From Patescibacteria group bacterium (lineage in GTDB: Bacteria; Patescibacteriota; Patescibacteriia; JACRDY01), in the NCBI GenBank assembly GCA_041650515.1, contig JBAZLA010000002.1:39572-103571 (forward strand): a DNA stretch of 64,000 nucleotides. Reading direction: 5' to 3'. The notes beneath the pieces are model-generated. The model was given only the letters and a program-made list of their open reading frames with translations, searched no databases and had not been told where the DNA came from. Each line of letters starts with the position of its first letter. The first letter of the stretch is position 1. Positions 9,329 to 44,312 of this stretch are shown here, piece by piece. A program made the position numbers and the translations under genes.

Positions 9329-9533
9329 ATTTCTATCATTATATTAGATAAATTATCTTTAAATATAATAATCCTAATTTATCTAAATTGCAAATTAACC
9401 AAGCCAAAAAAATAAATCAAAAAATCGCCTAAATTTATAGACGATTTTCTGGTTATCTAATTACCGAACTCGCGGGGCACTCGGGTCTGGAACCACAAAG
9501 GGCACCCCACCGGGTCTCGATACTTTTTTTCTT

Positions 9534-9608
9534 TGGTGACCCTACCGGGACTCGAACCCGGGTTTACGCCGTGAGAGGGCGTCGTCCTAACCACTAGACG
9601 ATAAGGCC
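9534..9608 (-). tRNA. tRNA-Glu (anticodon CUC)
   Basis: Manual cloverleaf fold. The acceptor stem GGCCTTA/TAGGGTC pairs with two G-U wobbles. D stem is GTCT/GGAC. Anticodon stem is ACGCC/GGCGT with loop CTCTCAC. T arm is CCGGG-TTCGAGT-CCCGG, with discriminator A and an encoded CCA. Confidence 0.8.
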
Positions 9609-9614
9609 GTATTT

Positions 9615-10137
9615 AGTATATAGGTCTTAGTATGCAGTATGCGGGAAAATTAAACAATTTTTAATAAAAGATTTAGATGATTTTAATGCCTAGTTTTTTA
9701 TTATTCTAATATTAATTAATAAATACAACTTTATGTCGGAAAAAATCAAATCCTTCACCGATCTTATAGCCTGGCAAAGGGCCCGCGAGCTAGTCTTGAC
9801 AATTTATAAAGCGACTGAAAATTTTCCTAAAAAAGAAATCTACGGATTGACAGACCAAATGCGCCGAGCTGCCGTCTCGGTTACTTCTAATATCGCCGAA
9901 GGCTTTAGCCGAAAATCCAAAGCCGACAAGGCCCATTTCTACACTATAGCTAAAAGTTCACTAGTTGAGCTACAGAACCAACTGATTATTGCCAAAGATA
10001 TTAACTATCTAGAAAATAACTATTATCAAGCAACCTACATTATAACTATTAATTGCAGCAAACTATTAGTTGGTTTAATCCGCGCCGCTGAAGCAAAACA
10101 GTCTTCCCCGCATACTACATACTAAGACCTGCATACT
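9615..10137 (+). mobile_element. IVS-like cassette: a 31-bp imperfect inverted-repeat pair (9615..9645 and 10107..10137) flanking a four-helix-bundle protein gene, inserted between tRNA-Glu and murF
   Basis: AGTATATAGGTCTTAGTATGCAGTATGCGGG on the left, and on the right the reverse complement of cccgcatactacatactaagacctgcatact. The two match at 28 of 31 positions. Confidence 0.45.
9733..10125 (+). CDS. Four-helix-bundle protein (23S rRNA intervening-sequence protein family; same fold family as DGR Avd)
   Basis: 130 aa. FTDLIAWQRARELVL, DQMRRAAVSVTSNIAEG and AKSSLVELQNQL match the family (PF05635/TIGR02436) closely. Confidence 0.85.
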   Translation: MSEKIKSFTDLIAWQRARELVLTIYKATENFPKKEIYGLTDQMRRAAVSVTSNIAEGFSRKSKADKAHFYTIAKSSLVELQNQLIIAKDINYLENNYYQATYIITINCSKLLVGLIRAAEAKQSSPHTTY

Positions 10138-11444
10138 CACCTATTCCGCCACTGCCCGGTTTGCCGCACCAAAAGCTCCTCGGCACGTAACGGCTCGGCC
10201 ATCAGTTCTTTGACTACTTTTTCCATCCGCACGCCTTGCGAGCCTTTAACTAAAATTAAGTCGCCCTGATCAATTCGCTCTTGCAAAAATTTACCAGCTT
10301 CTTCCGCTTTATCAAAGCTATAAACCTGATCAGTAGATAGACCAGCGCCCTTAGCCGCATTGGCTGTTTGTTTAGATAGACTACCAACAGTAACCAAATA
10401 GTCAATACCTAATTCCGCTACTTTCCGACCGACTTCCAAGTGACCCTTATCGGCATAAGTACCCAACTCTAACATATCACCCAAAACAGCGTATTTTTTA
10501 TGCGGTGACGGCAATTGAATCTTACCCAAAACTTCTAAAGCCGCTAGAGCCGCGATTGGCGACGAATTATAGGTATCATCAATAATTAAGGTGTATTTAA
10601 TCCCATCAATCAAATTCATCCGACCGGGTGGTGATTTATATTGTTTAAGATTTTCGGCGATTCTGATTAAGTTTATTTTAAAAACCGTTCCCACCGCCAC
10701 CGCGGCTAGAGCTGACATAATTGAGTGGTGGCCCAGAATAGCCGGCAAAAAAACCGGCACCGTACTGCCTTGATAACTAATTTTAAAAGTCACACCACTA
10801 ATTGATTTAATACCCTCTGGGCGAGAAACATTTTGACCGGCGATTGTCTCTTCATAAGCTCTAACCAAAGCATTATCAGAAAAACCATAAGTTAAGACCC
10901 GACATTTTAGCCCATCAATCATCTTAGCAACCATCGAGTCATCAATATTAAGAATAGCTGCCCCATCACTCGACAAACTCTTAGCCAGAGTCTGTTTTTC
11001 TCTAGCCACACTATCGAGGTCACCTAAAAACTCGGTGTGTACCGGAGCCACTGCTGTTACCACGCCAACTTGGCATTTTACAAATTCGGTTAAATATTTA
11101 ATATCCCCCAGCTTATCCGCCCCCATTTCTAAAATTAATATCTCCGGGTAATTTTTCTTTTTGGGCAAGATAATTAAACTCAAACCTTTTAAAAAAACAA
11201 CCAGCCACTTAAACGGATTTTTGCCCCCGGTGTCAGCATCAATAATGGTTAGTGGCACGCCTAATTCATTATTATAATTTTTATAATTTTTGCGGACCCG
11301 AAATTCGCTAGATAAAACCGTATAAACCGCCTCTTTGGTTGAGGTTTTACCAACACTACCAGTAATACCAACCACCTGCGGTTGATAGCGCTTGAGCGTC
11401 CGTCTGGCCAGAAAACGGAGAATTTTTTGAATTATTTTTCGCAT
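10137..11444 (-). CDS. murF: UDP-MurNAc-tripeptide--D-Ala-D-Ala ligase
   Basis: 435 aa. Mur ligase P-loop ITGSVGKTSTKE, plus Mur ligase central and C-terminal domains. Confidence 0.8.
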   Translation of the reverse strand: MRKIIQKILRFLARRTLKRYQPQVVGITGSVGKTSTKEAVYTVLSSEFRVRKNYKNYNNELGVPLTIIDADTGGKNPFKWLVVFLKGLSLIILPKKKNYPEILILEMGADKLGDIKYLTEFVKCQVGVVTAVAPVHTEFLGDLDSVAREKQTLAKSLSSDGAAILNIDDSMVAKMIDGLKCRVLTYGFSDNALVRAYEETIAGQNVSRPEGIKSISGVTFKISYQGSTVPVFLPAILGHHSIMSALAAVAVGTVFKINLIRIAENLKQYKSPPGRMNLIDGIKYTLIIDDTYNSSPIAALAALEVLGKIQLPSPHKKYAVLGDMLELGTYADKGHLEVGRKVAELGIDYLVTVGSLSKQTANAAKGAGLSTDQVYSFDKAEEAGKFLQERIDQGDLILVKGSQGVRMEKVVKELMAEPLRAEELLVRQTGQWRNR

Positions 11445-17137: not shown

Positions 17138-17821
17138 ATGTCCAAAAGAGGTAAACGCTACACTGATGTAGCCAGCCAGATCGATCGAACCAAAACCTAC
17201 AGCCTAGAAGAGGCAGTCGATCTGATTAAGCAAGCTCCTAAAGAAAAATTTGATGCTTCTATTGAGGTCCACCTGCACCTCGGCATCGATACCAAAAAAA
17301 GTGACCAACAGATTCGTTCAACGATTGTCCTACCCCATGGTACTGGCAAAACTAAAAAAATCGCGGCTTTTGTTGAACCAGAAAAAGAAAAAGAAGCTAA
17401 AGACGCCGGCGCGGCTCTGGTTGGTGGTGAACAACTAATCAACCAAATTAAGCAAACCGGCAAATGCGATTTTGAAATCGCTGTTGCCACCCCCACTATG
17501 ATGCCCAAAATGGCCGCGATCGCCAAGATCCTAGGCCCCAAGGGTCTGATGCCCTCACCTAAAAACGAGACTATCGCTCCGAATGTAAAAAAAATAATTG
17601 AAGAATTAGGTAAGGGTAAAGTAGCTTTTAAGAGCGACAATACGGGCAACATCCACCAATTAATTGGCAAGGTTTCTTTTGAGAAAAAACAATTATTAGA
17701 AAATCTCCAAATATTTCTGGATGCAGTCAAAAAAGTTAAACCGTCTTCGAGCAAAGGTGTTTTTATTAAAAGTGCCACGCTTTGCACTACGATGAGTCCG
17801 GGAATCAAAATTGCCGTCTAA
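17138..17821 (+). CDS. rplA: 50S ribosomal protein L1
   Basis: 227 aa. MSKRGKRY...AKDAGA..VGG match L1. Confidence 0.9.
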   Translation: MSKRGKRYTDVASQIDRTKTYSLEEAVDLIKQAPKEKFDASIEVHLHLGIDTKKSDQQIRSTIVLPHGTGKTKKIAAFVEPEKEKEAKDAGAALVGGEQLINQIKQTGKCDFEIAVATPTMMPKMAAIAKILGPKGLMPSPKNETIAPNVKKIIEELGKGKVAFKSDNTGNIHQLIGKVSFEKKQLLENLQIFLDAVKKVKPSSSKGVFIKSATLCTTMSPGIKIAV

Positions 17822-17939: not shown

Positions 17940-17993
17940 TGTCATCCCGAGTGAAGCCCCGATGTAATCATCGGGGCTTCACTCGGGATGACA
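17940..17993. repeat. Perfect ~24-25-bp inverted repeat (TGTCATCCCGAGTGAAGCCCCGATG / taatc / ATCGGGGCTTCACTCGGGATGACA). REP-like element or bidirectional terminator.
   Basis: Direct reading. A related TGTCATCGCGAG element lies at 21940..22033. Confidence 0.7.
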
Positions 17994-18058: not shown

Positions 18059-18859
18059 TTATAACAACTTTAGTATCTCTTGGTGCAATTTGGTGCCATT
18101 GCTCGCTACAAACTGCGGGGCTAGATCACTAGTAGCGCGACTATTAAAATCAGTAATTTTACCTCCAGCTTCGCGGACCATCAATTTACCACCCAGATAA
18201 TCATAAATCTCGTTACCTCGGTTGATCACTACTTCTAGTTTACCAGCTGCTAAGAGAGAAAAATCAATCGCCGGCGACCAATTATTGACTACTCGTTTAG
18301 TCTGCTTCTGACCAGACTTAACTAAAAAACCAGCTAAATTTTTGTTCCAATCACCATAACTACCAACATAGGCAACCGTTGAACGTTTGATATCCGTTTG
18401 TTTATTAACCCTCAACCGACGATTACCTGAATAAGCACCGCCACCCTCGACTGCCCAATAAACCTGACCGGACATTGGCAAATAAGTTACCGATCTAATC
18501 ACCTCTTTATTCTGGAGTAAAGAAATAGCCACTGAGAAATTAGTTAGGCCTAAAATAAAATTATTTGAACCATCAAGCGGATCAATAACCAGGGTATACT
18601 CTGAGCCTTTATTAATTATCCCCCGCTCTTCACTGTGTAAATTATAGCTAGGAAAGCTCTGACTTAAATATTTTAGGATTTTAGCTTCTGACTCTAAATC
18701 AGCCTTCGATACAAAATCAGCAATAGTGGTCTTCTCTTTTAGCTTTAAATCCTGCCCAAAATACTTTTTGAGCATTTCGCCACCAGCCTTGGCCGCCTGA
18801 ACAATTTTTTTACTCATTAGATCCATAATGACGTTATTATAAAATAGTATCGTTTCCAA
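18059..18859 (-). CDS. Inositol monophosphatase family protein (SuhB/CysQ-like)
   Basis: VIDPLDGSNNF metal-binding motif. The true start may be the internal MDLMSKK. Confidence 0.75.
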   Translation of the reverse strand: METILFYNNVIMDLMSKKIVQAAKAGGEMLKKYFGQDLKLKEKTTIADFVSKADLESEAKILKYLSQSFPSYNLHSEERGIINKGSEYTLVIDPLDGSNNFILGLTNFSVAISLLQNKEVIRSVTYLPMSGQVYWAVEGGGAYSGNRRLRVNKQTDIKRSTVAYVGSYGDWNKNLAGFLVKSGQKQTKRVVNNWSPAIDFSLLAAGKLEVVINRGNEIYDYLGGKLMVREAGGKITDFNSRATSDLAPQFVASNGTKLHQEILKLL

Positions 18860-42818: not shown

Positions 42819-42968
42819 ACTATTTCAGCTTTTTAGCGTCACCACGATAGCTACGATTGACTTTAATCTTCAAAACTTGCGCCGCTAGTGTGCCACTACT
42901 TTTACTTACTTTTCTCTTTTTCTTTTTTTCCCGCTTCTCCGCTTTTAATTTATTCACTAACATACTTA

Positions 42969-44312
42969 CTACTTTTTACTTGCTACTTTTAGTATTTCCC
43001 CTCTCAGAATCCACATCAATGGTTTATTAATTTTAACCCTAACAATCCGGCCAACCAGCTTTTTATCACCCTTAAACTCCACCCGTTTCATTTCTTGACT
43101 ATTGCCACCACACTGACCGTCCTTAAAACTATCAACCAAAACCGAAACTACTCGGCCATAATATTGCTGATTTTTTTTCAAAACTATTTGCTCCATTAAT
43201 TTTTGTAAAACCAGCCAACGACGTTTTTTTTCCACTAAAGACACATCATCCTTAAATTTAGCGGCCACTGTTCCGACTCGCGGCGAAAATTTGGCTAAAT
43301 AAGCAATATCAAAATTTACTGTTTTGTACAATTTAACCGTATCTAAAAATTGCTTTTTAGTCTCGCCGGGGAAACCAACTATAATGTCTGTCCCGAGGGC
43401 AATATTAGGCTTTTTAGCTTTAATCTTTTCAATCAATTTTAAATAATCTTTAGCCGTATAATGACGATTCATCAAACGAAGCACTTCATCATCACCGGCT
43501 TGTACTGGCAAATGGAGGTAGTTAACCATTTTGGGTAAAGTCAAAGCGTCAATCACCTCGTCGCTCATATCTTTAGGATGCGCCGCCGTAAAAAAAATTC
43601 GTTCCAGTCCTTTAACTTGATTCAATTCCCACAGCAGCGCCGCGAAAGGATGACGGTAGGGATTATTTTTAGAAAAACTCGCTCTATCTTTGGGTCTATA
43701 ACTATTAACATTTTGTCCCAATAGGGTTACTTCCAAACAGCCTGCTCTAACCGCTTTTTTAATTTCGCTAATAACATCTTTGACTAGCCGACTAGTTTCC
43801 CGGCCCCTAGTGTAAGGCACGGCGCAATAAGAACAAAAATTATTACAACCAGTCATAATCGGCACAAGAATCTGCGCTCTGGTTTGATATTTAGGAATAA
43901 TTTTAAAATAGTCGCTAGCCGCTTTTGTTTTCTTATTTTCTTGCCCTCCGACTCCGCTCAGGATAGGCTTTCTTGTTTTTTTAATCTTTTCTCCCCACCT
44001 ACTCAGCTCCTCTATACCTAATACCAAATCAAATTTTTGAGCAAACGATTTTATATCTTGTGGTAAAACACAACCGGTCAGAATTGTTATAATTTCTGGC
44101 TTCTCATCTTTAAGCTTATTCCAAAGACGAATTTTACCCCAAATTCGGTCAATCGCCGCTTGGCGTACCGAGCAGGCGTTAACTAATAAAATATCCGCCG
44201 CTGTTTCTTCGCTCGTCACTTGATAACCAAGACGACTAAAAAAAGCCTCGATTCGCTCCGAGTCTGATTTATTCATTTGACAACCAAGAGTAAGAATATA
44301 AACCTTGGACAT
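42969..44312 (-). CDS. miaB: tRNA methylthiotransferase (radical-SAM MTTase, MiaB-like)
   Basis: N-terminal MTTase Cys triad, radical-SAM motif CNNFCSYC, and a C-terminal TRAM domain. It lies upstream of miaA. Confidence 0.8.
   Translation of the reverse strand: MSKVYILTLGCQMNKSDSERIEAFFSRLGYQVTSEETAADILLVNACSVRQAAIDRIWGKIRLWNKLKDEKPEIITILTGCVLPQDIKSFAQKFDLVLGIEELSRWGEKIKKTRKPILSGVGGQENKKTKAASDYFKIIPKYQTRAQILVPIMTGCNNFCSYCAVPYTRGRETSRLVKDVISEIKKAVRAGCLEVTLLGQNVNSYRPKDRASFSKNNPYRHPFAALLWELNQVKGLERIFFTAAHPKDMSDEVIDALTLPKMVNYLHLPVQAGDDEVLRLMNRHYTAKDYLKLIEKIKAKKPNIALGTDIIVGFPGETKKQFLDTVKLYKTVNFDIAYLAKFSPRVGTVAAKFKDDVSLVEKKRRWLVLQKLMEQIVLKKNQQYYGRVVSVLVDSFKDGQCGGNSQEMKRVEFKGDKKLVGRIVRVKINKPLMWILRGEILKVASKK

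Follow-up and report, generated by a model that had tools for sequence, protein, structure and literature searches.

Genes of the 23S rRNA intervening-sequence family nested in inverted heptamer arrays: a cassette between murF and tRNA-Glu in a Patescibacteria genome and its relatives in other phyla

Why would a gene of the family known from the intervening sequences (IVSs) of 23S rRNA lie, bracketed by inverted repeats, between a tRNA gene and murF? The question is raised by 64,000 nucleotides of DNA from a Patescibacteria group bacterium (contig JBAZLA010000002.1, positions 39,572 to 103,571; hereafter the window), in which an earlier note had spotted 31-nt inverted repeats that match at 28 of 31 positions (a count borne out by eye) and bracket only a 130-aa open reading frame (ORF). 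A repeat search confirmed these arms and extended them to 34 nt, of which 30 match (88% complementary), with a separation of 455 nt and no other ORF between them (Table 1). They form the longest long-range inverted repeat of the window, and a 24-nt arm core, searched with up to 3 mismatches, is found at two places only in the 64 kb, namely the two arms (0.00 expected from shuffles); there are no further arm copies in the window. The arms are themselves inverted arrays of a 7-nt unit, AGTATNN. The left one can be written as GTATTTA GTATATA GGTCTTA GTATGCA GTATGCG, and its periodicity starts at position 9609, immediately after the 5' end of tRNA-Glu, which lies 6 nt from the 31-nt arm of the earlier note and 0 nt from the first heptad. 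On the other side, the last 7 codons and the stop codon of the ORF overlap the right arm, which is in turn abutted by the murF stop codon. The cassette is 523 nt long, including 84 nt between the left arm and the ATG, and its ORF is antisense to both murF and tRNA-Glu. The heptads, the coding overlap with the right arm, and the antisense orientation had escaped the earlier note.

The assignment of the encoded protein to the four-helix-bundle family of 23S rRNA IVSs was borne out by profile searches, with 128.3 bits against PF05635 (cut-off 33.8) and 119.9 bits against TIGR02436 (cut-off 24). In the AlphaFold2 (AF2) model, which is that of a monomer, the protein folds into four helices (predicted local distance difference test score, pLDDT, 89.4), and residues 121-130 are disordered; most of them are encoded within the right arm, which begins at codon 124. 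Foldseek matches this model to the structures 2GSC (template modelling score, TM, 0.8-0.9; 44% identity) and 2RLD, and phmmer matches the protein to 2GSC with E = 3e-20, i.e., to the four-helix-bundle fold of XCC0516 and BT_0352. Both 2GSC and 2RLD crystallise with five chains, and XCC0516 (2GSC) is described as a toroidal homopentamer (Lin 2006, as cited in PMC4990558). A first homologue search returned 4770 proteins at E <=1e-3. Within this very large family, only the antisense orientation and the 5' spacer set the window copy apart.

The bracket of inverted heptamer arrays is a rule of this family. In Patescibacteria, 80 loci encoding relatives with 49-61% identity, from many lineages, were fetched and analysed by script. 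The three closest homologues (62-64% identity; P0003/L001, P0005/L005, and P0007/L007) have arms with 32-37 nt sequences of their own, built of 7- or 14-nt units. Both arrays, forward before the gene and reverse-complement after it, were detected in 75 of 84 Patescibacteria loci; this is a lower bound, as the detector, which looks for units with the core G[TA]A[TG] and yields 9 arrays in 286 kb of shuffled sequence, misses units such as GAAATTA/GATATTA. In these loci, where the arrays stand directly next to the gene, translation begins within the last left unit or right at its edge (start-codon offsets -1, -5, -12) and ends within the first right one (stop-codon offsets 0, -7, -14); the median element length is 434 nt. 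Arms mostly count 4-5 units, with a range from 3 to 18. Hyper-expanded arms, with 13-18 heptads, are seen in L032 (3862-3984), L029 (4392-4486), and L072 (3640-3727), and suggest that slippage alters arm length, as reported between Coxiella strains. At a further locus, L124 (1413-1965), on the contig that also has an ORF-less hairpin after murF, a second PF05635 gene lies antisense between ftsI and murF (1457-1828), its arms being built of GAAATTA/GATATTA units. Across all groups compared here, heptad-bracketed homologues were found at more than 90 independent loci.

Cassettes of the same build exist well beyond Patescibacteria. A tblastn search of a plasmid collection gave 32 records, mostly from cyanobacteria, and inverted heptad arms were present in 8 of the 8 loci inspected (cyanobacteria, Riemerella, and Azospirillum), each with a different unit (Table 1). 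Two of these, in Anabaena sp. 90 (L126, 1498-1866) and Pseudanabaena galeata (L127, 1513-1872), occupy the same site of a type I-D CRISPR-Cas operon. Inverted arms with a period of 7 were also found in 15 of 27 IMG/VR loci; the only clear departure from this period that was noticed is the 8-nt arm unit (GGAACTAA) of another IMG/VR entry (L141, 1365-1406). What stays the same across lineages is therefore the inverted layout with its period of 7 nt, whereas the sequence of the unit changes, and the nesting of a PF05635 gene in inverted heptamer arrays holds across phyla, a true 23S IVS included.

These arrays resemble heptamer repeats that have been described in their own right. The STRR heptamers of cyanobacteria were reportedly described by Mazel and colleagues in 1990. 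Other examples are GGGAATC in Xanthomonas and GGGGA(C/T)T in Anabaena (PMC4692102), or TAACTGA in Beggiatoaceae, cyanobacteria, and Bacteroidetes (PMC4679880). As here, they form intergenic arrays of 2-14 heptamers that often end at a start codon, and frequently come as convergent, hairpin-capable pairs, mostly between co-oriented genes; the present unit differs in being AGTATNN and in occurring in a Patescibacteria genome. In X. campestris, GGGAATC is highly enriched, with about 186 arrays and 70 convergent inverted pairs, to which that study assigned no function (PMC4692102). In Xanthomonas, the XCC0516-type gene lies in sense orientation between accB and accC (L160, 2430-2872; L162), where GGGAATC GGGAGTG GAGAATC GGGAATC stands on one side of it and an inverted nATTCCC array on the other, i.e., the four-helix-bundle gene sits inside one GGGAATC pair. 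Neither PMC4692102, in which the term "S23" occurs 0 times and the S23 protein is not mentioned, nor PMC4679880 makes a connection to PF05635, and no paper linking PF05635 with flanking inverted heptamer arrays outside rRNA was found in a literature search that covered a minority of subscription journals.

A conserved-motif scan, with Rfam on 17 loci, placed no cassette of the 84 Patescibacteria loci in rRNA, and the window contains no rRNA, its Rfam match being to tRNA only; the earlier note was right to describe an IVS-like arrangement outside rRNA, between tRNA-Glu and murF. Sixty-three of the 84 cassettes are in sense orientation between co-directional genes and five, the window copy included, are antisense (counts that rest on a crude ORF caller). 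The median gaps to the neighbouring genes are 40 and 31 nt, and the arms fill these spacers, so that a typical cassette leaves no space for a separate promoter and has to share the transcript of the host operon. Such cassettes, then, normally fill operon spacers exactly, in the sense orientation.

Proximity to a tRNA gene was seen only at L001 and L009 among 63 scanned loci. The earlier note had described the cassette as inserted next to tRNA-Glu; taken as a tRNA-targeted event, this does not stand, because adjacency is not a feature of the family and there is neither a target-site duplication nor, among the ORFs of at least 170 aa at window positions 1-22000, an integrase. A tRNA-targeted integrative element was rejected on the same grounds, the cassette lying moreover at the 5' side of the tRNA, and the cassette neighbours tRNA-Glu because the operon spacer is a conserved one, not because the tRNA is a target. 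Copies resembling the 3' half of tRNA-Glu are present on the side of the tRNA opposite the cassette. Elsewhere, heptad hairpins without an ORF flank tRNA-Thr on both sides in L027 (7920-8278), and another lies directly 3' of tRNA-Glu(CTC) in L009 (1295-1483), which is consistent with a role of ORF-less hairpins at the boundaries of stable-RNA precursors.

The antisense copies stand apart by their leaders. The spacers from arm to ATG in the five of them are 43, 93, 123, and 133 nt (among these the window, L005, and L007) and 2 nt, against a family median of -1 nt. Those of the window, L001, L005, and L007 have blocks in common, TTTAAT..TTTAGA.., TATTAT/TATAAT/TAATAT, and TAATTAATAA, among which the -10-like blocks were read off the alignment and are candidates only. 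These four copies probably represent a minority antisense sub-lineage with an acquired leader or promoter, from which the gene would be transcribed on its own.

The rRNA IVSs are among the systems closest to the window cassette. ORF-bearing IVSs are found in the 23S rRNA of Coxiella burnetii, Leptospira, Brucella, and Xanthomonas (PMC4990558). That of Coxiella is 428-444 nt long, with a terminal stem of 28 bp and GACAGAT units, two or three in tandem, immediately before the ATG of its S23p gene; RNase III cuts the stem in vitro, at the first repeat (PMC4990558). The window cassette has the same protein family (PF05635, or "S23p") and is of the same size class, as is the family median; it also has a terminal inverted repeat around the ORF, with a stem of about 28-34 bp, and a heptamer arm 5' of it, directly before the ATG in Coxiella and 84 nt away in the window. 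The differences are its location in an mRNA/tRNA spacer instead of an rRNA helix, its ORF on the plus strand, antisense to murF and tRNA-Glu on the minus strand, whereas IVS ORFs are in sense, and the extra 84-nt 5' spacer.

We favour an explanation in which an IVS-type PF05635 cassette occupies the spacer of a unit running from murF through the cassette to tRNA-Glu and a terminator, and in which the stem formed by its arms is processed by RNase III; we put its chances at about even. Scanning gave no promoter-like site between murF and tRNA-Glu, which makes co-transcription through the cassette likely, and murF, the antisense cassette, and tRNA-Glu would then form one minus-strand transcript ending at a hairpin like that of an intrinsic terminator (9451-9418). 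In this read-through transcript, the arms would pair into a duplex of about 33 bp that RNase III could cut, as it does in rRNA IVSs, thereby detaching the murF mRNA from the tRNA-Glu precursor, while the antisense cassette RNA would be discarded; its removal may be what makes the insertion tolerable. The reasons to think of a mechanism at the RNA level, similar to that of IVSs, are that the spacers are transcribed, that the arms abut the stop and start codons of the neighbours, that the stems are 25-35 bp long, and that the rRNA homologues are cut by RNase III. Folding agrees with the presumed duplex: on either strand, the fold predicted for the entire cassette is closed by the arms (z about -4.3), and the arms alone form a stable hairpin, with -44.8 kcal/mol on the plus strand and -52.6 kcal/mol on the minus strand, the latter with ~28 bp uninterrupted. 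The mean arms-only energy in the family is about -26 kcal/mol.

Several results weigh against this explanation. If the stems acted in the host transcript, a strand preference might be visible in them; wobble mismatches are not biased to the host-sense strand in ORF-less hairpins (10 vs 13, with 42 transversions), and the count in ORF-bearing elements (26 sense vs 54 antisense) is confounded by the start and stop codons embedded in the arms. Likewise, the stem energy has no strand asymmetry over 54 sense elements, and the order of units in one arm is not mirrored in the other beyond chance (mean z -0.06 over 58 elements in a heptad permutation, a test of low power where arrays are homogeneous). 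Mismatches between the arms amount to 24-31% at the variable heptad positions vs 0-9% in the core, so that the arms look like arrays of one recognised unit and not like freely co-varying stems. A motif search of the 64-kb window did not reveal an RNase III gene, which is uninformative for the whole genome, and a sigma-70 scan of the 5' spacer gave no convincing promoter.

That the arms look like arrays of a recognised unit leads to a second explanation, which we hold as tentative and less probable than RNase III processing, and which is compatible with it: the heptads would be binding units of the encoded toroidal pentamer, in a manner reminiscent of RAYT proteins and their repetitive extragenic palindromic (REP) sequences or of the wrapping of RNA by TRAP. 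Specificity would co-evolve in each lineage, and arrays and ORF-less hairpins alike would be targets for autoregulation, RNA protection, or propagation. Several observations point in this direction. The period is constant and the unit lineage-specific (GTATTAA, GAATCAT, GGGAGTA, AGGTGAC, AAAAGCT, GGGAATC, AGAGGAC, and others), and within the unit the core positions are near-invariant and the variable ones loose. The type of arm follows protein kinship, the nearest protein neighbour having the same type in 66 of 75 cases, and the core type is common to both arms of one element in 67 of 75. The usual 4-5 units per arm can be set beside the five chains of the relatives 2GSC and 2RLD, a fit of one unit per protomer being speculation, and the homologue Avd is part of an RNA-protein complex (8UB7). 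The Xanthomonas gene, lastly, lies within one of the 70 inverted GGGAATC pairs (PMC4692102 for repeat counts).

The protein itself offers a hint of recognition. Residue 63, which immediately follows the invariant SNIAEGFSR motif, is a Tyr in 25 of 35 elements with GAAT-type arms vs 1 of 40 with GTAT-type arms, and in 8 of 12 vs 0 of 13 when 25 clusters (>=68% identity) are counted (Fisher p = 4.6e-4); the window protein has K63 and GTAT-type arms. This covariation hints at protein-repeat recognition, and as phylogeny is only partly controlled in it, it is a lead, not a result. Other points speak against recognition: the Coxiella protein is reportedly not made and the arms persist nonetheless, the element is single in the window, with no other heptad hairpins there, and arms range from 3 to 18 heptads. 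In its fullest form, this explanation would make PF05635 pentamers the cognate, sequence-specific partners of lineage-specific heptamer hairpins (STRR-like in cyanobacteria, GGGAATC in Xanthomonas, AGTATNN/AGAATNN in Patescibacteria, and IVS arms), a proposal that we regard as possible but less likely than not. The gene would then reside inside one hairpin of its own repeat, like RAYT genes, one pentamer would bind an arm of 4-5 heptads with about one unit per protomer, and the protein would govern the folding, processing, or spread of hairpins in host transcripts. The likeness to REP/REPIN sequences and RAYTs consists in a single-copy gene bracketed by inverted short repeats and in the many ORF-less intergenic hairpins; it is an analogy of layout only, since the protein is a non-catalytic-looking four-helix bundle instead of a Y1 (HUH) transposase and the repeats are tandem heptads instead of a single palindromic unit.

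ORF-less derivatives of the cassette exist, and its sites have turned over between relatives. About 27-30 heptad hairpins without an ORF (loops of 2-120 nt) were counted against 86 ORF-sized pairs in 589 kb of loci. The nearest MurF relatives are only 64-69% identical to the MurF of the window, and the murF/tRNA-Glu junctions in relatives, which the earlier note had proposed to compare, differ in the presence of the ORF, its orientation, and the type of heptad, some being empty (Table 1); the uniform arrangement in all relatives that the note had named as a refutation is thus not what they show. The layout of murF, a heptad hairpin with or without an ORF, tRNA-Glu, and a terminator is thus conserved, and its hairpin content has been turned over among relatives. 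An ORF cassette sits exactly in the uvrB/uvrA junction in L005, and an ORF-less hairpin whose loop keeps the leader motif in L007. In another metagenome, an ORF-less hairpin between murB and murC (L102) has one arm that matches that of the window at 30 of 32 positions. It came from a metagenome scan with the window arm that returned 30 loci, mostly chance single matches, real-looking heptad arms being limited to L102, L094, L096, L097, and L090. A motif, CCACCGT/ACGGTGG, recurs in either orientation in the loops of ORF-less hairpins (L007, 756-851 and 2775-2871; L102, 2964-3054), and TCCACGT is found just inside the left arm in L005; the motif could be left over from the cassette leader, or act as a signal in the loop.

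Such turnover fits an element that moves as DNA, its arms being terminal inverted repeats or hairpin ends for a recombinase supplied in trans and the ORF-less hairpins deletion derivatives akin to MITEs, the miniature transposable elements with inverted repeats. The variable occupancy of the orthologous murF site, with two arm lineages and both orientations, the uvrB/uvrA pair, the near-identical arm at murB/murC, the leader motif retained in ORF-less hairpins, and the strand symmetry of the stems all agree with it. We nonetheless find it unlikely: target-site duplications are absent both from the window element, with its differing flanks TATTT and CACCT, and from L001; no transposase or integrase is encoded among the ORFs of at least 170 aa at positions 1-22000; the arm sequences are too diverse for a single enzyme; and the sense bias of 63 vs 5 is not expected of a DNA transposon. 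A transposon or MITE in the ordinary sense was set aside for want of a target-site duplication or a nearby transposase, with an enzyme acting in trans as a possible source of mobility.

The remaining two candidates can be dismissed. Descent from a diversity-generating retroelement (DGR), as a remnant or as its accessory gene Avd, is suggested by the fold shared with Avd (4DWL, 8UB7), which contacts RNA in the DGR ribonucleoprotein, and by weak matches to the bAvd and DivGenRetAVD models, and is excluded, in line with the earlier note, which had judged it unlikely: these matches are far below the cut-offs (30.6 vs 40 bits and 30 vs 80 bits), sequence identity to Avd is 10-13%, no template/variable repeat pair or long direct repeat is present, and the neighbours (EamA, asparaginase, MurF, PBP, TylF, NusG, and L1) include no reverse transcriptase among ORFs of at least 170 aa at 1-22000. 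Chance alone, or a terminator or insulator that works in both directions and has nothing to do with the gene, might explain a stem that is stable on both strands between convergent units (the ORF is read from the plus and murF from the minus strand). This reading has next to nothing left in its favour once it is considered that zero chance matches are expected, that the arms are 455 nt apart with no U-tract after them, and that the bracket recurs at more than 90 independent homologue loci.

Table 1. Coordinates of the cassette and its neighbours in the window, and inverted heptad elements at loci compared with it
Feature	Position	Strand	Description
Left arm of inverted repeat	9615..9648	not applicable	AGTATAT AGGTCTT AGTATGC AGTATGC, then GGG
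Right arm of inverted repeat	10104..10137		reverse complement of AGTATGC AGGTCTT AGTATGT AGTATGC GGGG
AT-rich 5' spacer, left arm to ATG	9649..9732	+	candidate promoter/leader
130-aa four-helix-bundle gene (PF05635 / TIGR02436)	9733..10125	+	profile matches, AF2 model
tRNA-Glu(CTC)	9534..9608	-
murF (Mur ligase)	10137..11444	-	upstream gene of host transcription unit
End of host transcription unit	9418..9533	-	two tRNA-Glu 3'-half-like copies (9457-9533), terminator-like hairpin (9451-9418)
Nostoc (L125)			GGGAGTA, arms 33/34; between nrdB and nrdA
Anabaena (L126)			AGGTGAC; between cas6 and cas4
Pseudanabaena (L127)			AAAAGCT; between cas6 and cas4
Calothrix (L128)			AGGGTGT
Nostoc (L129)			CAGGAGT
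Riemerella (L130)			AAGGTTY
Geminocystis (L131)			AAAGGGA
Azospirillum (L132)			AGAGGAC / GGATGAC; inside 23S rRNA gene, genuine IVS
murF 3' junction, L120			PF05635 cassette on same strand as murF, TTACGAA-type arms, then tRNA-Glu(CTC)
murF 3' junction, L121			ORF-less TTACGAA element, then tRNA-Glu
murF 3' junction, L124			ORF-less GTAT-type hairpin, then tRNA-Glu; murF-proximal arm 27/33 vs the window's
murF 3' junction, L122			two remnant heptads, then tRNA-Glu
murF 3' junction, L119 and L123			no arrays

A few other features of the window and of the murF junctions deserve mention. The tRNA-Glu-like block at the end of the host unit contains, on the minus strand, TCGAGACCCGGTGGGGT, which matches TCGAGTCCCGGTAGGGT of tRNA-Glu at 15 of 17 positions, and a second 3'-half-like copy, TCCAGACCCGAGTGCCC; it is kept in L001 (about 2715-2798) and could be made up of att-like scars or be a small tRNA-like RNA. 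Rfam has no family for this stretch, nor for the arms. Sequences resembling tRNA-Glu also lie 3' of murF in L120 (4326-4428), L119 (3822-3895), and L122 (3313-3400), with a perfect, GC-rich hairpin of 35-40 nt interrupting the D-arm region, and ARAGORN calls a second tRNA-Glu at 4356-4424 of L120; they may represent a family of interrupted or pseudo-tRNAs. The only other array of three G[TA]A[TG] heptads in the window is found on its own (42962-42986, minus strand), without an inverted partner. The genes at positions 1-22000 encode, besides the neighbours named above, a histidine kinase, an aminotransferase, and a type II secretion system (T2SS) ATPase, among others. Finally, rplA (17138-17821) and an inositol monophosphatase gene (18059-18859) converge on a GC-rich palindrome at 17940-17993 (TGTCATCCCGAGTGAAGCCCCGATG / CATCGGGGCTTCACTCGGGATGACA), perfect over 25 nt and with a loop of 4 nt, which probably acts as a terminator in both directions.

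Two puzzles have stood open for more than 30 years: the role of the ORF in rRNA IVSs, and that of the heptamer repeats so abundant between bacterial genes (STRR, GGGAATC, TAACTGA, and others). The comparisons made from this locus join the two, as the gene is nested in inverted heptamer arrays across Patescibacteria, Cyanobacteria, Bacteroidota, and Proteobacteria. The rRNA IVS then appears as a special case of a cassette that lives mostly in ordinary operon spacers, ORF-less hairpins are its derivatives or targets, and the bracket of the gene itself belongs to published heptamer families such as GGGAATC. For reduced genomes, such as those of bacteria of the candidate phyla radiation (CPR), this provides a simple rule for annotating both the cassettes and their ORF-less derivatives.

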